DNA of 64,000 bases from an uncultured Lentisphaeria bacterium (GCA_964508765.1 CAZDVD010000004.1:66784-130783); one strand, 5' to 3'; shown: positions 17,732-26,130, counted from the stretch's first letter. The notes: generated by a model not told the origin, from the sequence alone. Made by a program: numbers and translations.

Positions 17732-19111
17732 TTAATGAACATCATAAATACTGCCACCTATAAATTCACGGAAATGCGAGGTTTCGGGGATGGGAGATTC
17801 GTCTGCAACTGGAGTGACAGATTCCAGCATTTCCCGTACTCTTTTGGCTCTTAGATAGGCATCTACGCGACGTGGATCATTCTTATAGTCCTGCTCCCAC
17901 TCCCTGAAGTGCTCCAGTAGACGATTTCTCATCACCGGCAATTCATAGGGTACAGCTCCATTGATGATATAATCAGCCGTTGTGATATAGGGTAGGATAT
18001 TTCGCAATTCTGCATTGCGGACGTAATGCCAGTGTGTCAATGTTTGACGGGGATCATAAGCACGGTGCTGTTCATCACGAATCATGCGACGCATGAGTCT
18101 CAGATCAGTCCAGCGGATAAATTTTCCGTTAGCACCTTTCATCTGCAACAAAGTTTCGATATACACTTTAAAAACGGTGCTCTGGTCAATTCCGTTGAGC
18201 ATGTCACCGTAAAGTCCATGGAGGCTATCAATGAGGATGACATCTGTGGATTTAATCTTCAGGGGAATCTGATCCAGAGTCCGTGTGCCTGACTTGAAAT
18301 CGTAGGATGGAGTGAGCACTTCCTCACCTGCCAACAATTGTTTAATATGTTGATTGATAAGGTGGAGATCCAGAGCTTGAGGGGTCTCAAAATCATGGTC
18401 ACCAAATTCATCTACAGGATGCATTTCGAGATCAAAAAAGTAGTGATCAACATTCAGCTCAACCAGACCCATGCCCTTTTTTGAGAGATAGTGAGCCAGC
18501 TTGCGCGTCGTGGTGGTTTTTCCCGATGAGGATGGACCCGCCACAACCACGATCCGAATGTATCCATCACGCTCGCTGATCAGTTCGGCAGCGGCTTGAA
18601 CATCAGATTCATAAGCAGCATCTGCTTCCAGACAAATCTGGGGAAATTCACCATTGGCAATTCGCTGGTTTAATTTTTCAACGGAATTGAGATCATGATC
18701 TGAAGCCCAGACTAATACCTCATAAATTTTCTGATACGGGATATTCCCTGTGTGAACCGTGCTTTTGCTGAGCTTGGCCTTGCGCTTTTCATTCTGAGTT
18801 GCCCTGTATATAATAAAGTGTTTGGCAACGGTGGCATGGCCTTCTTCAATGAGCACTTTTTCAACGATATCCTGGATAGCTTCCACCATGGGTGGTTGTT
18901 CAACAGAATAGTTCTCACAGATAATGCCCTCGATTTTCAGCGCGAGTTCATCAGCTTTGTCCTTATCACGTCCACCTACTGCTACAGCGGCCCTATAAAT
19001 GGCGTTGCTGATACGTTTGCGGGAATAGGGAACGTAGGTTCCATCACGTTTAAATACATGGGTCAGCTTACAAACTTCACTCATCGCTATCACCAAACTT
19101 GATCTCGTCAC
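17732..19111 (-). CDS. ATP-cone domain fused to a uridine kinase/phosphoribulokinase-like P-loop kinase
   Basis: 459 aa. The N-terminus (VFKRDGTYVPYSRKRISNAIYRA) is ATP-cone-like. Walker A VVAGPSSSGKTTTTRKLA and ILIDSLHGLYG match the PRK/UK nucleoside kinase family. Confidence 0.6.
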   Translation of the reverse strand: MTRSSLVIAMSEVCKLTHVFKRDGTYVPYSRKRISNAIYRAAVAVGGRDKDKADELALKIEGIICENYSVEQPPMVEAIQDIVEKVLIEEGHATVAKHFIIYRATQNEKRKAKLSKSTVHTGNIPYQKIYEVLVWASDHDLNSVEKLNQRIANGEFPQICLEADAAYESDVQAAAELISERDGYIRIVVVAGPSSSGKTTTTRKLAHYLSKKGMGLVELNVDHYFFDLEMHPVDEFGDHDFETPQALDLHLINQHIKQLLAGEEVLTPSYDFKSGTRTLDQIPLKIKSTDVILIDSLHGLYGDMLNGIDQSTVFKVYIETLLQMKGANGKFIRWTDLRLMRRMIRDEQHRAYDPRQTLTHWHYVRNAELRNILPYITTADYIINGAVPYELPVMRNRLLEHFREWEQDYKNDPRRVDAYLRAKRVREMLESVTPVADESPIPETSHFREFIGGSIYDVH

Positions 19112-19538
19112 TTAATTCATTGACATCGTCTGCTGCCACAGGAAAGTATTTTGCCAGATTTTCACCTAATTTGTGAATACCAGCCAATAATCCTTCACGC
19201 ATATTACCCTGACCAAATTGAGCTCTCATCTCATCCACGGTTTCTTCCCAGAAGTCTACCGGAACTTTTTCATGGATACCCACATCGCCATAAACAGCAA
19301 ATTTATGCTCAGAAAGAAAAAGAACGATGAGTGTGGCATTACGCTCTTTAGTCTGATGAAGCTTCGCTTTTTCGAATATTCGCTTGGCAGTTTTATAGGG
19401 TTGATTGTGTGAGCTTGTATTAAAACTGATGACAATCTCACCACTGGTTCGACCTTCAAAAGTTTTTATCTCAGCAGATATATCCTGCAAATCCTGGTCA
19501 CTAAAAATCTCTTTTGCCAGTTTCTCAGCTTTGCTCAT
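19077..19538 (-). CDS. TPM domain protein (TLP18.3/Psb32/MOLO-1-like phosphatase fold)
   Basis: 153 aa with GEIVISFNTSS...LIVLFLSEHKFAVYGDVG, typical of the TPM domain. Its 3' end overlaps the kinase gene start. Confidence 0.55.
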   Translation of the reverse strand: MSKAEKLAKEIFSDQDLQDISAEIKTFEGRTSGEIVISFNTSSHNQPYKTAKRIFEKAKLHQTKERNATLIVLFLSEHKFAVYGDVGIHEKVPVDFWEETVDEMRAQFGQGNMREGLLAGIHKLGENLAKYFPVAADDVNELSDEIKFGDSDE

Positions 19539-19558: not shown

Positions 19559-21115
19559 TCAATAATCGTCGGTGATGTCTTTACCTTGTTTCTTACTGAT
19601 CACTCGGAATTCATCCATGTTTTTGGATTCATCCTCGACAATTTCAACTTTGATAAAATGCTGCCACTGAATAGAGCGGACCACATTTTTACGACCAGAT
19701 CTTAAAAATTTCGCCAATTCAGGATTGACCACCAGTTGAAGTCTAAATTCACGTTTCTTGGAATGAAAGCGACGGAACCAACCCTCAATCTGTGTGGTAA
19801 GGGCAGCTTTGGACATAATGCGACCCCGTCCCTTACAAACGGGACATTCCTCAGTAGCAGAAAGCAATAAGCTGAGACGAATGCGTTGGCGGGTCATTTC
19901 CAGGAGACCGAAATCGGAAATGTAACTTACAGCTACCTTAGCACGGTCTTTACGTAATTCACGTCGGAGTTCGTAATAGACTTTCTTCTTATTGTCCTCA
20001 CGGGACATGTCAATAAAGTCAATAACGATTAATCCACCCAGATCTCTGAGACGTAGTTGCTGAGCAATCGCTCTGGCAGATTCTAGATTGATCTTCACAG
20101 CATTGGCTTCATGGTCTTTGCGGCCAATAAATTTTCCTGAATTCACATCGATGGAAACCAGAGCTTCCGTCTGTTCAATAACGATAGAAGCGCCACTCTT
20201 CAGGCCCACTTTGCGAGACATGGAGATATCGATAGCCTTCTGGACATTATAGGCATCAAACATGGGCAATTTTTTATTGTAATGAATGAGTCGATCCAGC
20301 AATTGGGGAGCAGCCCCTTTGAGATAGCTGCTGGTTTGCTTGTACATAGATTTATTATCAGTGATGACACGCTGAACATCATTGGTAAAAAGATCCCGAA
20401 TAAGACTGGAGACCGTCTCCATGTCTTTATAGACAAGCACAGGACCAGGTTTGCTTTTTACCACCTTTTCCATGCGTTTGTAGGAGTCCATGAGGTTATT
20501 TAAATCAGCACCCAGGGCTTCATCATCTTTGCCTTCTGTAACCGTTCTGGCGATCAAACCAAAGCCTTCAGGTTTCAATTCCTGACAAGTACGTCTAAGG
20601 CGACGCCGCTCAAAATTGTTGTAAATTTTCCGCGAGATTCCAATAGAATTTGAATTCGGTACCAAAACCAGGAAACGACCTGGAAGGGAGATATTCGTTG
20701 TAACTCGAGCCCCTTTACCCATATAAGGTTCTTTGATAACCTGAACGAGAATCTGCTGTCCCGTCTTTAATTTTGGGGCATTGTGCCTTCTATGATCATG
20801 ACGTTGATTCTGATTTCTTGAACGACCACGCCCACCTTTGCGAGGTTTTTCATCCTCATCGTCCTCATCCTGATCCAGGAGAAAGGATTCACCTTCTACC
20901 TCAGAAAAGGGCAAAAATGCATTGGCTCCAATGCCAATATCAACAAAAGCCGCCTGCATACCAGGCAACACATTTTCAACAACGCCTTTGTAGATATTGC
21001 CAACAATCCTGATGTTTTCGGGTTTTTCAACATAAAGTTCTACGAGAACGTCATCCTCATGGATGGCAATCCGAGTTTCCTTATGTGTTTGGTTTATAAA
21101 GATGTCCTTCTTCAT
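19559..21115 (-). CDS. rng: Rne/Rng family ribonuclease (RNase G-like)
   Basis: 518 aa with an N-terminal S1 domain (IVGNIYKGVVENVLPGMQAAFVDIG) and the DNase I-like catalytic core. A basic/acidic insert (DEDDEDEKPRKGGRGRSRNQNQRHDHRRH) lies inside the S1 region. Confidence 0.85.
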   Translation of the reverse strand: MKKDIFINQTHKETRIAIHEDDVLVELYVEKPENIRIVGNIYKGVVENVLPGMQAAFVDIGIGANAFLPFSEVEGESFLLDQDEDDEDEKPRKGGRGRSRNQNQRHDHRRHNAPKLKTGQQILVQVIKEPYMGKGARVTTNISLPGRFLVLVPNSNSIGISRKIYNNFERRRLRRTCQELKPEGFGLIARTVTEGKDDEALGADLNNLMDSYKRMEKVVKSKPGPVLVYKDMETVSSLIRDLFTNDVQRVITDNKSMYKQTSSYLKGAAPQLLDRLIHYNKKLPMFDAYNVQKAIDISMSRKVGLKSGASIVIEQTEALVSIDVNSGKFIGRKDHEANAVKINLESARAIAQQLRLRDLGGLIVIDFIDMSREDNKKKVYYELRRELRKDRAKVAVSYISDFGLLEMTRQRIRLSLLLSATEECPVCKGRGRIMSKAALTTQIEGWFRRFHSKKREFRLQLVVNPELAKFLRSGRKNVVRSIQWQHFIKVEIVEDESKNMDEFRVISKKQGKDITDDY

Positions 21116-21635
21116 TTCAATTCCTTAGATATGAATTGAACCGGTAAAAGAAGAAGGTTGAGGCATTTACTCTCAACGGGGAGGTCATTCACTCTCCTTG
21201 AATGAACCTTTCACAAAATTTTTGTGGCGCTTACTCTACTTGAGCGGACTCTCTGTAGTCCTATTCTATCTGATCTTGCGCACTATCGATTCGGAATTTT
21301 TTCAGGAATCGATTAAATTCTTTTACCAATTCTGGTTTTAGCAGTCTTATGAGCTGCTATTAATTCAGGTGCATCAAAAGATGTTCACCTGTTTTGCAGT
21401 CGTAAAAAGCGTTCCCCTTGCTTGGGTCGAATTTTTATATAAGCGGGAACGTAATGACCTGACAGTAATCCTAGAATAAACAGATTTCAGAATATCCCAC
21501 CGATCTAAACCTCAATGTTTTTAGGTATGCCGGGGTTGTCTCTCAGAGACAAACATGGATAAACCGCTATACAGACGGGAGGTGTGGATCTGTTCAGGTT
21601 CTTTTTACAACGGTACTCACCGATCGTCCAACCAA

Positions 21636-24209
21636 TCACGCTGTGAAGTTCATGAAAACAGCTTCTCTTTGAACAGTGTGTATTGGTAGGCTTTCGATCG
21701 GAACTTCAAAAAACGCGGGGAGAAATTCGTTTAATCGGATTCCCTTCCCGTTTTGAACCAGAGTGATAACTTCGAGGCTATTACCCTTTATTTCAATAGA
21801 CTGGATATATACTTTTATATCCAGGGATATTACGCGCTGTTTTCGCTCGCGTTTAATATACACATTTTTCTTCTGTTCAAAGTTTTGTTTCAATTCCTCC
21901 AGAGACATTTCAGCAGGAATATCTTCCAGGTCAATTCTCTGTTTAATGGAGGAAATCTGACCCGTCACAGAATCTATTCTACCCTTGTGCCACGCCACTT
22001 CAAGCACAGCAACACCAGCAGGTAGATATTTATTTAAACCCTCAACGATTGAATCAACTTGGCGAAAGAGTAGAATATCCATGTATTCAGCTTCAGATGT
22101 GTAACCCAGTGGTAACGCTGGTCCACTGGATATTTTAGGACGGCTATTAAAACCCTGAGAAAAAACAACAGGTAAACCGGCTAGACTGATAGCTCGCATA
22201 AAGGAGTTCTGAACATCAAGATGACCGAGATAACTGGCCATGCCTGACTTTGAATATCTCAAGCGGGCAGTATGCACCGGTGTGGTGTTTAGCAGCTCGG
22301 GAAGGGGCTCTCTTTCAGGGGCAACATAGGGTTCTGGTTTGATAGTGGATTCACCTGCTGTACCATCTTTGACAACCCGCATAAAGAGTTCGTCGAAATC
22401 GCAAACACCACAAGCCAGACAGCCATCTCGACAATCAATAACGGTTGCTTCTTGATACGCATTCCGTTTTTCTCGACGTAGAAACTTTTTCAGGATGCCG
22501 TTATCCACAATATCCCAGGGTAGAATCTCTTGATCATCCCGGGCATCCAGATAATCCTGGTAATTAATACCTGCCGTTTCAAAGGCATTCATCCAGCGAT
22601 CATAGCGGAAGTAATCACCCCAGCTATCAAAGCGGGCACCTTCTCGCCATGCTTCATAGATGGCGGCAGCAACCTTTCGATCCCCCCTGGATAACACTCC
22701 CTCAATCTCGGAGTATTTCGGATCACGATAGGAAGCTTTCACATTTTTATGCTTCAAATTTTTCATCAGGAAATCAACCTTTTCCCGGATGACCTCCTTG
22801 CTGTCTTGTGCTTCCCATTGGAAGGGTGTTTCCGGTTTGGGAATGAAGGTGGACAGGGTCACATTAATTTTTATCCTACCGTACGGGTTGGACATTTTAC
22901 GGACATCATTGATGAGATCTACGATTCCCTGCAAATCAGCCTGTGTTTCTGTGGGCAGACCCAACATGAAATAGAACTTGAGTGTCTTCCAGCCCCCATC
23001 CAGAGCAATCTGTACCGATGAGTATAAATCTTCATCACTGATCACCTTGTTGATGACCCGGCGCATCCGCCACGTACCGGCTTCAGGAGCAAAGGTTAAA
23101 CCTGATTTGCGCTCCTCTGAAGCAATTGAAGCAATCTCTTTGGTAAATGTATCTAGGCGCATTGACGGAAATGAAACTGAGACCCGATTTTCTCTGAGAT
23201 AGGGTTTCATACCCTCAACCACTTCAGTCAGACCTGTATAGTCACTGGTAGATAGCGACAAGAGCGACATGTTTTTCTGACCAGTATTGGCTAGTGTGGT
23301 TTTGGCTGTCTCAATGAGTTCTTCGGGTTTACGCTCGCGAACAGGACGATATACCATGCCAGCATGACAGAAACGACATCCCTGTGTGCAGCCCCGCATG
23401 ACTTCCAGGGCAAACCAGTCCTGGGCTGTTTCAACAATGGGAACGATGGGCTTTGTGGGATAATTGGAGGCTTCCAAAACGGGGATTTTGGCGCTTTTCA
23501 CCCGATCAGGAGCTTTATCAAAATTTTTGGTGATGGCGATTAATTTACCCGAGGTATCCGTTTCAAAGTCATAGAACGCTGGCACATACACACCTTCAGG
23601 CATAGATGCCAGATCCTCCAGTATCTCACGCCGGGAGCGTTTTACTCGACGTCCTTCGCCAATACGGCGCACCAGTTCAACCACCAGTTCCTCGGCATCT
23701 CCAATGATCACAAGATCAAAAAAATCTGCCACGGGTTCTGGATTGTAGGCATTGGTTCCACCAGCAATAACAAAGGGATCTTCCTCATTCCTGTCTTTTG
23801 TCCAGATGGGGATATCAGATAAATCCAGCATGGTCAAAATGTTGGTGTAGAGAAGATCATAGGGTAGTGAAAACCCTACAATATCAAAGTCACGCAAATG
23901 ATGCTTGGTTTCAAGACTATGCATGGGCAAGCCATGCTCGCGCATAAGTCCTTCCATATCAGGCCAGGGTGCATAGACCCTTTCTGCTGCGATATCTGCT
24001 TCCCGATTCAGGATATGATACAGTATCTGGAAACCATTATATGGCATGGCTGTATCATAGACATCAGGAAAAGCTAAAGCGATACTTGCTCTAATTTTAT
24101 CCCAATCTTTGATGATAATGTTGTATTCGTTTCCCAGATATCGTCCGGGTTTGGCTACTTTGGGAAGTACCCGCGTATGTAAAATGTGTTCTATTTCTTT
24201 GGGTTGCAC
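21636..24209 (-). CDS. B12-binding radical SAM protein (TIGR03960-like) fused to a C-terminal DUF2344 (TIGR03936-like) domain
   Basis: 857 aa. The CxxxCxxC motif appears as MRGCTQGCRFCHAG, with an N-terminal B12-binding-like region before it. The C-terminal roughly 230 aa match the radical-SAM-linked DUF2344 family. Confidence 0.7.
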   Translation of the reverse strand: MQPKEIEHILHTRVLPKVAKPGRYLGNEYNIIIKDWDKIRASIALAFPDVYDTAMPYNGFQILYHILNREADIAAERVYAPWPDMEGLMREHGLPMHSLETKHHLRDFDIVGFSLPYDLLYTNILTMLDLSDIPIWTKDRNEEDPFVIAGGTNAYNPEPVADFFDLVIIGDAEELVVELVRRIGEGRRVKRSRREILEDLASMPEGVYVPAFYDFETDTSGKLIAITKNFDKAPDRVKSAKIPVLEASNYPTKPIVPIVETAQDWFALEVMRGCTQGCRFCHAGMVYRPVRERKPEELIETAKTTLANTGQKNMSLLSLSTSDYTGLTEVVEGMKPYLRENRVSVSFPSMRLDTFTKEIASIASEERKSGLTFAPEAGTWRMRRVINKVISDEDLYSSVQIALDGGWKTLKFYFMLGLPTETQADLQGIVDLINDVRKMSNPYGRIKINVTLSTFIPKPETPFQWEAQDSKEVIREKVDFLMKNLKHKNVKASYRDPKYSEIEGVLSRGDRKVAAAIYEAWREGARFDSWGDYFRYDRWMNAFETAGINYQDYLDARDDQEILPWDIVDNGILKKFLRREKRNAYQEATVIDCRDGCLACGVCDFDELFMRVVKDGTAGESTIKPEPYVAPEREPLPELLNTTPVHTARLRYSKSGMASYLGHLDVQNSFMRAISLAGLPVVFSQGFNSRPKISSGPALPLGYTSEAEYMDILLFRQVDSIVEGLNKYLPAGVAVLEVAWHKGRIDSVTGQISSIKQRIDLEDIPAEMSLEELKQNFEQKKNVYIKRERKQRVISLDIKVYIQSIEIKGNSLEVITLVQNGKGIRLNEFLPAFFEVPIESLPIHTVQREAVFMNFTA

Positions 24210-24632: not shown

Positions 24633-24710
24633 GTTTCGATTAGCTCAAATCTAACTGCTCCCCACGGTTAGAGATGCAAATTATCCAAGAAATCAATTCT
24701 CACTGAGAAA

Positions 24711-25280
24711 CCCATGATTTCAATCATGGGCAGGTGTCCAGATCCAATAGCAACCGCAACCATTTTAATGGTTTATTAGTAGTTTATGGTTTTCCATTAA
24801 CCTTTCATATTCTTCTAAGAAGGTCATGGTTCGATGATGTTCTTGTTGATTCTGGATATAGTATTCGACCTTGCCCACAGCGGATTCACTTACTGAAAAT
24901 CCTCCATAACCTACTTGCCAGGCAAATTTAGCATGGATCATATCATTCTGATTTACCCAATGAAATGATTCACCTTTGATCGATTTCATTACTTGAGCAA
25001 TAGAAAGCTCCCTGGGCAACAAGAACAACGCATGGATGTGGTTACTTGTGCCGTTTATACTCCTTACCCCACAGCCTGTCTTCTCCATTTCTTGCTGGAT
25101 ATGTAAGAATAGTTCTTTTCGTATATCATCCTTTATCAATGACCTGCGCCCCTTGGTTCCAAATACGCTGTGTATCCATATCCTAGTTAGTGAGTGGCTC
25201 ATCTTGGTGTATCTCCTTTAAACCGTTGAAACGGTTTTCGTTTTTGGGGGCATATTTTACCCCACGATTAAAATCGTGGG
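24711..25280. mobile_element. IS200-like minimal element or RAYT unit bounded by near-identical hairpins
   Basis: The left hairpin CCCATGATTtcAATCATGGG (24711-24730) and right hairpin CCCACGATTaaAATCGTGGG (25261-25280) have the same architecture and differ by one compensatory pair. Additional hairpins AACCATTttAATGGTT (~24760) and AAACCGTTgAAACGGTTT (~25222) lie inside the element. Confidence 0.5.
24765..25202 (-). CDS. tnpA: IS200/IS605-family Y1 (HuH) transposase / REP-associated tyrosine transposase-like
   Basis: 145 aa. The HuH motif HIHALF is present and the overall TnpA_IS200 pattern fits, with YxxxQ in the C-terminal half (YYIQNQQEHH). Confidence 0.8.
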   Translation of the reverse strand: MSHSLTRIWIHSVFGTKGRRSLIKDDIRKELFLHIQQEMEKTGCGVRSINGTSNHIHALFLLPRELSIAQVMKSIKGESFHWVNQNDMIHAKFAWQVGYGGFSVSESAVGKVEYYIQNQQEHHRTMTFLEEYERLMENHKLLINH

Positions 25281-25537
25281 TAGCGATTCCCATTTATTAG
25301 TTATTCTGGAATTCCAAGCTATAAAGCTTGGTGTTCTAACCGTATTTTGCATGGAATGAGACTAAATTTGGGATTGTGGGTTAGCTAAGCCCTTAAAATA
25401 TAATCATGAAAGCCACCGTTTCAATTATGAGCTGATTATTCCCAAAAAACATACTTAAGAGCTTCCTTTTTTTCATGAAAGTGGTTTTACTCTGCATGCC
25501 CTTTTCAAAGTTGCCTGAACGATGTCCAATAAACGTC

Positions 25538-25566
25538 TTGACGTTATAGCGTCATAACGCTATTTT
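25538..25566 (+). promoter_or_regulatory. putative sigma70-type promoter with overlapping inverted repeats (candidate antitoxin operator)
   Basis: TTGACG (25538-25543), a 17-nt spacer, then TATTTT (25561-25566). The inverted repeats GACGttatagCGTC and AGCGTcataACGCT overlap the spacer. GGAGGA (25579) sits 9 nt before the ATG at 25594. Confidence 0.35.
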
Positions 25567-25593
25567 CACTCCCTATCTGGAGGAGAATAGCCT

Positions 25594-25827
25594 ATGAAAA
25601 AACTATCAACTCGGGCAACGGTTTATCTGGAGCCCACTATTCACAAAGCTTTGAAGTTAAAAGCAGTAGAGACATCCCTCTCTATTTCCCAGATTATCAA
25701 TGATGCCTTGCGTTCTGATTTATTTGAGGATGCAGAAGATCTGGAAACTTTTCAGAATCGAATTGATGAGCCCTCATTGGATTATGAGACTTTTGTTCAG
25801 GAATTGAAGCGAGATGGCATTCTATAA
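25594..25827 (+). CDS. type II antitoxin (ribbon-helix-helix, ParD/RelB-like)
   Basis: 77 aa, located immediately upstream of the RelE/ParE toxin and overlapping it by 14 bp. The N-terminal ATVYLEPTIHKALKLKAV resembles an RHH domain. Confidence 0.6.
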   Translation: MKKLSTRATVYLEPTIHKALKLKAVETSLSISQIINDALRSDLFEDAEDLETFQNRIDEPSLDYETFVQELKRDGIL

Positions 25828-26071
25828 GATTGAATTTAAAAAATCGGTCAAAAAGGATCTTAGACACCTTCCCAAAAATGATATTGTTAAAATTTTAGAC
25901 CGCATACATAGATTGTCCACCAACCCTAGACCTCAGCAATCAAGAAAATTGTCCAGCCAAGAAAAATATCGTTTACGGCATGGGAAATATCGGATCTTGT
26001 ATGAAATCCGAGACCAGTTATTGCTTATTACAATTGTAAAGGTTGGCCATAGAAAAAATATCTATCAATAG
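25814..26071 (+). CDS. RelE/ParE family toxin
   Basis: 85 aa. YKIEFKKSVKKDLRHLPKNDIVKILDRIHRL...RLRHGKYRILYEIRDQLLLITIVKVGHRKNIY is the classic RelE/ParE pattern. Confidence 0.75.
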   Translation: MAFYKIEFKKSVKKDLRHLPKNDIVKILDRIHRLSTNPRPQQSRKLSSQEKYRLRHGKYRILYEIRDQLLLITIVKVGHRKNIYQ

Positions 26072-26130
26072 GACTCAATTCTATATTGTATGGCTGATGC
26101 AGTGAACCCAAAGATGAAAGCGACCTAGTC

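Follow-up and report, generated by a model that had tools for sequence, protein, structure and literature searches.

The locus

In a 64,000-nucleotide (nt) stretch of the assembly of an uncultured Lentisphaeria bacterium (GCA_964508765.1, CAZDVD010000004.1:66784-130783; hereafter the window), we analysed a gene encoding a radical S-adenosylmethionine (SAM) protein fused to a DUF2344 domain, together with the Rne/Rng-family endoribonuclease gene that follows it and the spacer between the two. The features of this locus, with positions counted from the first letter of the window, are as follows (aa, amino acids).

21636..24209, minus strand: TIGR03960-TIGR03936 fusion gene (radical SAM plus DUF2344), 857 aa, GTG start; open reading frame (ORF) and family profiles
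23580..24035, minus strand: N-terminal Rossmann-like domain, PF19864 Radical_SAM_N2, aa 59-210; Pfam match
22911..23405, minus strand: radical SAM core, PF04055, aa 269-433; Pfam match and CX3CX2C motif
22401..22433, minus strand: second cysteine motif CRDGCLACGVC, C593-x3-C597-x2-C600 plus C603; conservation in homologues
21657..22268, minus strand: DUF2344/TIGR03936 domain, aa 648-851; profiles, AlphaFold2 (AF2) model and Foldseek
21116..21635, minus strand: conserved structured non-coding spacer, 520 nt, candidate 5' untranslated region (UTR) of rng or regulatory RNA; conservation and folding
19559..21115, minus strand: Rne/Rng-family endoribonuclease, short form, 518 aa; PF10150 and TIGR00757

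Family membership of the fusion protein

The 857-aa protein scored 709.3 bits against TIGR03960 (curated cut-off, 462.3), with aa 13-605 aligned to positions 2-600 of the 605-position model, and 136.9 bits against TIGR03936 (curated cut-off, 71.9; aa 648-851). An earlier note, made from the sequence alone, had described the protein as a radical SAM module joined to a C-terminal DUF2344-like domain, and this description holds, as both NCBIfam cut-offs were passed. The note had also considered that profile searches might place the C-terminal domain in an unrelated family; they place it in TIGR03936/PF10105, above the curated cut-offs. PF10105 (DUF2344) matched aa 649-822 (E 6e-35, 121 bits versus a cut-off of 23.8), and PF19864 matched aa 59-210 (E 4.5e-60 to 3e-59).

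Public data contain one 857-aa protein that is 100% identical to the fusion protein. The closest proteins (76-100% identity) are metagenomic, those that carry a name belong to Candidatus Marinimicrobia/Fidelibacterota, and the same three Pfam domains are found in all of the 120 best matches. The protein is a Marinimicrobia (SAR406/Fidelibacterota) orthologue of a large, catalogued and uncharacterised family. A search with the DUF2344 domain returned 7,734 representatives of 50%-identity clusters (E <= 1e-3), in which two sizes are mixed: standalone proteins of ~200-260 aa and fusions of ~820-900 aa. Other architectures, such as a fusion to Rne/Rng, were sought among 10 matches of intermediate length, all of which proved to be N-terminally truncated radical SAM fusions, and the 69 full-length standalone members that we scanned matched no other Pfam family. 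Judging from these sequences, DUF2344 occurs only with a radical SAM partner.

The fusion and the linkage are already recorded in the NCBIfam model names (rSAM_fuse_unch and sam_1_link_chp), and the name given by JGI to such proteins is 'radical SAM family uncharacterized protein/radical SAM-linked protein'. Because the family, the fusion, the membership of DUF2344 in the pseudouridine-synthase clan and the uncharacterised status are all public, the window adds one more member to the family.

Two invariant cysteine motifs and the radical SAM part

Translation of the gene places C274, C278 and C281 at the GCTQGCRFC site (CTQGCRFC, nt 23367-23390), where the earlier note had seen the CxxxCxxC motif, and none of the three varies among 54 close and 75 distant homologues. 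A further triad, C593/C597/C600, is conserved to the same extent (54/54 close homologues and 75/75 distant homologues from at least 8 phyla), which brings the number of invariant cysteines to six, in two CX3CX2C motifs; the adjacent C603 is kept in only 42 of the 75 distant homologues. This second triad was absent from the earlier note and is new here. From its conservation we predict an auxiliary [4Fe-4S] cluster, one iron of which would have an open site.

The N-terminal region (aa 1-260) contains no invariant cysteine among the same 54 close and 75 distant homologues. The earlier note had called the radical SAM module B12-binding, a term that the NCBI family name also carries; PF02310 (B12-binding) gave only 16.6 bits (E 0.007) on the N-terminal domain, under its cut-off of 32.1. 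'B12' is a family label and not a demonstrated feature, and the domain is only distantly B12-binding-like.

The AF2 model of the full-length protein had a predicted local distance difference test score (pLDDT) of 89.8 and a predicted template modelling score (pTM) of 0.91. The best structural neighbour of the radical SAM part was MgmA (9ccb, E 5e-15), and MtaB/MiaB, AprD4, CysS, OxsB, RimO and Mmp10 were also found. These neighbours are mixed, comprising cobalamin enzymes (MgmA, CysS, OxsB and Mmp10) and non-cobalamin enzymes (MiaB, RimO and AprD4); AprD4 has a similar fold and is not known to use cobalamin. Some of the MiaB/MtaB structures are RNA complexes. The three parts of the model are laid out much as in the tRNA methylthiotransferases MiaB/MtaB, to which the structural neighbours also point, and this speaks for an RNA substrate.

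The DUF2344 domain adopts a TruA-type fold in the model

The DUF2344 domain was modelled with a pLDDT of 95.3. Its best Foldseek matches were Pus1, TruA and PUS3 (E 9e-7 to 2e-5; query TM-score, TMq, 0.5-0.66), followed by Cbf5 and TruB, and the matched PDB entries include 4iqm, 1dj0, 8q70, 2nqp and 9enc. The top 31 PDB hits were all pseudouridine synthases or chains with the pseudouridine-synthase fold in ribonucleoprotein or ribosome-assembly complexes. Pfam already puts DUF2344 beside PseudoU_synth_1 in the pseudouridine-synthase clan (PMC7955657). Because the top structural matches are all of this kind and the clan placement agrees with them, the modelled DUF2344 domain is best described as a complete, compact, two-lobe fold of the TruA/Pus1 type.

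At the sequence level, the relationship is distant. A profile of the 69 standalone members matched TruA of Thermus thermophilus (hmmsearch, E 0.06), TruA of Escherichia coli (hhalign, E 0.04) and a TruA alignment (hhalign, E 0.024) only weakly, in one and the same register anchored on a common 'LN..LP.G' strand-turn motif. In this register, the catalytic D60 of TruA (GRTDAGVH) stands opposite P61 of the domain, which is P700 of the protein, and the facing column is occupied by Pro, Ala or Ser across the DUF2344 family. A TruA profile seeded with the E. coli protein brought little gain and left the alignment unchanged, its homologues all being at least 81% identical. None of the 69 members matched the Pfam pseudouridine-synthase models (including PF01416, PseudoU_synth_1), even at E = 10. 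From these comparisons we conclude with moderate confidence that DUF2344 lacks the canonical catalytic Asp and serves for binding and not as a synthase. The conserved basic residues of the domain (R649, K654, R672, R787, K790, R825 and R848) would fit nucleic-acid binding. No truA gene was found by motif or tblastn in the window or in the 88 fetched loci.

Linkage to the Rne/Rng gene across phyla

The product of the downstream gene matched PF10150 (RNase_E_G) with an E-value of 2.7e-96 and TIGR00757 with 462.5 bits (cut-off, 326). It has an S1 domain, a catalytic domain and a thioredoxin-like domain, with the Zn-link CPVCKGRG at aa 424. Its scores fall below the equivalog models of both RNase G (NF008689, 369.3 versus 594) and RNase E (294 versus 908), and the defensible name for the 518-aa nuclease is Rne/Rng family. 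According to the earlier note, the fusion gene immediately precedes an RNase G gene. The nuclease gene is indeed the next gene on the same strand, but the two genes are not immediately adjacent because the 520-nt spacer lies between them, and the RNase G equivalog level is not reached. The S1 domain of the nuclease is broken by an insertion, first acidic and then rich in Arg (DQDEDDEDEKPRKGGRGRSRNQNQRHDHRRHNAPK; 20771-20884, minus strand, aa ~78-115), which recalls the Arg-rich RNA-binding segments in the C-terminal half of RNase E.

The gene neighbourhood was compared in the best 80 of 597 confirmed hits, with one genome per GTDB species; this sample is not random and is biased toward query-like sequences. 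It covers Calditrichota, Desulfobacterota, Bacillota, Actinomycetota, Chloroflexota, Nitrospirota, Myxococcota, Bdellovibrionota and Methylomirabilota. Neighbours were called by tblastn, and 67 loci with at least 2.5 kb of downstream sequence were informative. The TIGR03960 and DUF2344 modules are fused in 44 of the 80 loci and encoded by separate adjacent genes in 32, in line with the earlier note, which had them as two adjacent genes in many genomes. DUF2344 is missing from the other four loci, namely two that lie at contig ends and two Chloroflexota loci with a full 10-kb flank (L060 and L067). Because no DUF2344 gene is present within 10 kb downstream of the TIGR03960 gene in L060 and L067, some Chloroflexota form an exception to the strict pairing seen elsewhere. 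L067 contains two TIGR03960-like ORFs in convergent (tail-to-tail) orientation.

An Rne/Rng homologue is present in 44 of the 67 informative loci (66%), in all 44 cases downstream and on the same strand, and mostly at a distance of 50-500 nt. Longer gaps of 1.2-2.2 kb occur in Actinomycetota, whose nuclease has a long N-terminal extension, and in some Lachnospiraceae. For genomes of 2-6 Mb that contain one or two such genes, chance alone would give this adjacency in ~1% or less of loci. The linkage spans Calditrichota, Desulfobacterota, Bacillota, Actinomycetota, Nitrospirota, Methylomirabilota and Marinimicrobia, and the other neighbours vary, as the following counts illustrate.

Rne/Rng, downstream: 35 of 55 loci
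L21 and L27 (rplU, prp, rpmA), downstream: 21 of 55 loci
Obg, downstream: 18 of 55 loci
RnpA/YidC (with Jag), downstream: 7 of 55 loci
MreB/PBP2, upstream: 9 of 53 loci

Rne/Rng is the commonest and nearest partner, and in 10 loci it is present while all of the other blocks are missing. In Marinimicrobia, the order from the fusion gene to rng is held in every relative compared, from 85% down to 57% identity (L082-L088), while the flanking genes differ. The frequent linkage to rne/rng proposed in the earlier note is thus well supported by the enrichment among the informative loci and by the conservation of the order within Marinimicrobia.

Several other arrangements were seen. In six Desulfobacterota loci (L006, L014, L021, L023, L029 and L036), the fusion gene and rng are followed by rnpA, (yidD), yidC, jag/KhpB and further genes and not by rplU-rpmA-obg, and in L028 rnpA directly follows the fusion gene, with no rng. 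In Streptomyces, phage phiJoe and integrative elements of the SCO2603 type use an attB site located 74 bp from the 3' end of an SCO2606-like radical SAM gene (PMC5311408), and the 3' end of these genes is therefore a recurrent integration hotspot in this genus.

A spacer with predicted RNA structure in one Marinimicrobia clade

The 520-nt spacer (21116-21635) contains no conserved ORF and no Rfam match, either at the gathering threshold or at E <= 10. Its identity to the relatives (0.81/0.66/0.59) exceeds that of the third codon positions of the flanking genes (0.50/0.47/0.44). Folded on the gene strand, the spacer RNA has a minimum free energy of -150.1 kcal/mol (z = -4.77). A consensus structure was derived from seven sequences, six of them distinct, which form a small and closely related sample, with the following results.

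Predicted pairs: 121 in total
Cells forming a standard pair: 93.5% observed, 89.3% in shuffled controls, ~40% in slid controls
Pairs changed on both sides: 26 observed, 8.5 +/- 2.3 in shuffled controls, 3-11 in slid controls

The G-U pairs agree with the gene strand. Covariation above the controls is suggestive of a conserved RNA structure. The spacer is 240 and 164 nt long in more distant Marinimicrobia, and a pattern scan of metagenomes for the leader found it in close relatives only; as far as these data reach, the spacer appears to be specific to one Marinimicrobia clade.

The simplest reading is that the spacer gives the nuclease gene a long and structured 5' leader; it may instead be an independent small RNA or a read-through segment of an operon. 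A scan of the spacer for consensus promoters and terminators gave no convincing signal, and the promoter counts were at the level of shuffled sequence. A hairpin with a T-run just before rng was considered as a terminator but more probably belongs to a long-range helix, in which it forms one arm and the upstream GGTAAAAGAA the other.

Possible function of the fusion protein

We propose that the fusion protein is an RNA-modifying radical SAM enzyme tied to RNase E/G-dependent maturation of stable RNAs, and we give this reading a probability of roughly 0.55. It builds directly on the observed domain identities, fold, invariant cysteines and gene linkage, and an RNA-modifying role is likely because the gene lies just before an RNase E/G gene in many phyla. 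The earlier note had suggested an RNA-directed radical reaction; this idea is reasonable and gains strength because DUF2344 has a TruA-type pseudouridine-synthase fold, although the function is still one that we infer.

In the proposed mechanism, the DUF2344 domain, of TruA type and probably catalytically degenerate, would dock a structured RNA and flip out the target nucleotide. The [4Fe-4S] cluster on C274/C278/C281 would cleave SAM to yield a 5'-deoxyadenosyl radical, which would abstract hydrogen from the nucleotide. A predicted second cluster on C593/C597/C600, with one free iron, would hold the substrate or donate an atom such as sulfur, and cobalamin for methyl transfer might sit in the N-terminal Rossmann-like domain. 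The result could be that the nucleotide is methylated, thiolated or otherwise altered by a radical reaction. The substrates would be stable-RNA precursors (rRNA or tRNA) or other substrates of RNase E/G; these are the likely candidates because the gene precedes Rne/Rng and often rplU-rpmA-obg or rnpA-yidC-jag.

Several observations weigh against this reading and bear on the alternatives. The searchable literature yielded no biochemical or genetic datum for members of TIGR03960, TIGR03936 or DUF2344, and the alignments that place Pro opposite the catalytic Asp are statistically weak (E 0.02-0.06). The top neighbour of the radical SAM part, MgmA, is a protein glutamine C-methylase, and RimO, the S12 methylthiotransferase, also acts on a protein. 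With Mmp10 likewise among the structural neighbours, and with rplU, prp and rpmA downstream in 21 of the 55 loci, the substrate might be a protein, for example a ribosomal protein (L21/L27) or Rne/Rng itself, in which case DUF2344 would bind the protein or act as a chaperone. We consider this unlikely, as the DUF2344 model matches nothing with confidence except the pseudouridine-synthase fold, of which, to our knowledge, all known representatives bind RNA, and as the loci of Marinimicrobia, many Desulfobacterota and Nitrospirota keep Rne/Rng without the ribosomal-protein genes. DUF2344 might also be catalytic: it would then be a divergent but active pseudouridine synthase that relies on a non-canonical acid (for example D665 or E708), and the radical SAM part would modify the resulting pseudouridine in a two-step hypermodification. 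Sequential pathways of this type, pseudouridine formation followed by alkylation, exist in rRNA, the modelled two-lobe TruA-like fold is complete, and among close homologues E708 is invariant and H663 and D665 nearly so. However, the catalytic Asp position of TruA aligns with Pro, Ala or Ser throughout the DUF2344 family, some members have Glu in place of D665 or lack it, D665 maps, by the order of secondary-structure elements, to a non-catalytic N-terminal motif of TruA, and the 69 members lack any Pfam pseudouridine-synthase match at E = 10. An active synthase therefore seems to us very improbable.

The linkage itself is also open to another explanation. The adjacency to Rne/Rng might be the inherited order of an old mreBCD-pbp2-rodA / rng / rplU-rpmA-obg supercluster, and the substrate could then belong to the cell envelope or be otherwise unrelated to RNA. 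Approximately one-third of the informative loci (23/67) are without Rne/Rng nearby, mreB/PBP2 genes are found upstream in nine loci, and E. coli keeps mreBCD-yhdE-rng and is not known to carry the TIGR03960/TIGR03936 enzyme. In Actinobacteria, the homologue SCO2606 shares its phyletic distribution with the mre cell-shape cluster (PMC4255298). Against this explanation, the pair of fusion gene and rng persists without the mre and rplU blocks (Marinimicrobia L087/L088, Desulfobacterota, Calditrichota and Nitrospirota), its order and strand are constant, Rne/Rng is by far the commonest neighbour, and the pseudouridine-synthase fold independently indicates RNA. We regard a merely inherited gene order as a poor bet, and an RNA-modifying enzyme remains the reading that we favour.

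A more specific form of this reading, which we put forward tentatively and with clear doubt, is that the enzyme adds an undescribed modification, such as thiolation or a radical C-methylation, to the precursor of an rRNA or tRNA or to some other target of RNase E/G, and that this step is mechanistically coupled to RNase E/G processing in the many bacteria in which the two genes stay together. On this view, the ~500-nt leader in the Marinimicrobia clade would serve the nuclease, and perhaps also the modifier, as an RNA for regulating its own expression. If the protein does modify RNA, it would represent a new radical SAM RNA modification and the first case in which another enzyme has taken over a pseudouridine-synthase fold for targeting. 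The family, which is very large, occurs in most anaerobe-rich phyla and lies in a highly conserved neighbourhood of RNA-processing and ribosome-biogenesis genes. For the 64-kb window, the analysis confirms the annotation, sharpens the hypothesis through the fold, the apparently missing Asp and the predicted second cluster, and reveals a candidate clade-specific leader RNA.

Neighbouring genes and a probable mobile insertion

Two genes follow the nuclease gene on the same strand and overlap by 35 nt.

19077-19538, minus strand: TPM-domain protein; Pfam
17732-19111, minus strand: protein with an ATP-cone and a PRK/uridine-kinase-like domain, an unusual fusion; Pfam

The order fusion gene, rng, TPM gene and ATP-cone/PRK gene is kept in Marinimicrobia relatives down to 63% identity (L082-L087) and lost in L088. 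Because they trail the nuclease gene in these relatives, the two genes may belong to one operon with it.

Upstream of the fusion gene, ~1.5 kb (24633-26130) separates a DUF2007 gene from hisS, compared with ~135 nt in the relative L082, and this interval contains the following genes.

24765-25202, minus strand: IS200/IS605 Y1 transposase
25594-25827 and 25814-26071, plus strand: ribbon-helix-helix antitoxin and ParE toxin pair

The extra DNA looks like a recent mobile insertion.

Comparison with known systems

The fusion protein shares with MiaB, MtaB and RimO an N-terminal flavodoxin/Rossmann-like domain, a radical SAM barrel and a C-terminal substrate (RNA)-binding domain, as well as two Fe-S clusters (predicted here), and their structures are among its neighbours (7mjz, 7mjy, 9a6d and 4jc0; E 1e-8 to 3e-11). 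It differs from them in the placement of the auxiliary cluster, which in these enzymes is held by three Cys of the N-terminal UPF0004 domain, whereas the second triad of the fusion protein follows the barrel, and in the C-terminal domain, which is TRAM in these enzymes and TruA-like in the modelled fusion protein. It falls outside the MiaB/RimO family, with no TRAM match in the Pfam scan and 32.6 bits against TIGR00089 (cut-off, 251). The class B methylases MgmA, Mmp10, CysS and OxsB likewise have an N-terminal Rossmann-like domain followed by a radical SAM barrel, but are without a pseudouridine-synthase-like domain, and the fusion protein scores under the B12-binding threshold.

As for TruA, Pus1 and PUS3, the whole DUF2344 model matches the TruA catalytic domain (TMq up to 0.66) and shares the 'LN..LP.G' motif. 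DUF2344 is ~50 residues shorter, has 'ALP(L/V)G' in place of the GRTD loop that carries the catalytic Asp, lacks a sequence match at the Pfam level and, in the sequences compared, is never without its radical SAM partner.

Within the TIGR03960 plus TIGR03936/PF10105 family, the domain order, the invariant cysteines and the fused architecture are those of thousands of database entries. Nothing of substance sets the protein apart, and only the long structured spacer ahead of rng is unusual at this locus. The closest parallel to this spacer is the 5' UTR of E. coli rne (Rfam rne5), an autoregulatory leader. The spacer has no sequence or covariance-model similarity to rne5, is confined to one Marinimicrobia clade and is shorter in distant relatives; what the two have in common is that each is a long, conserved and structured leader directly before a gene of the RNase E/G family.

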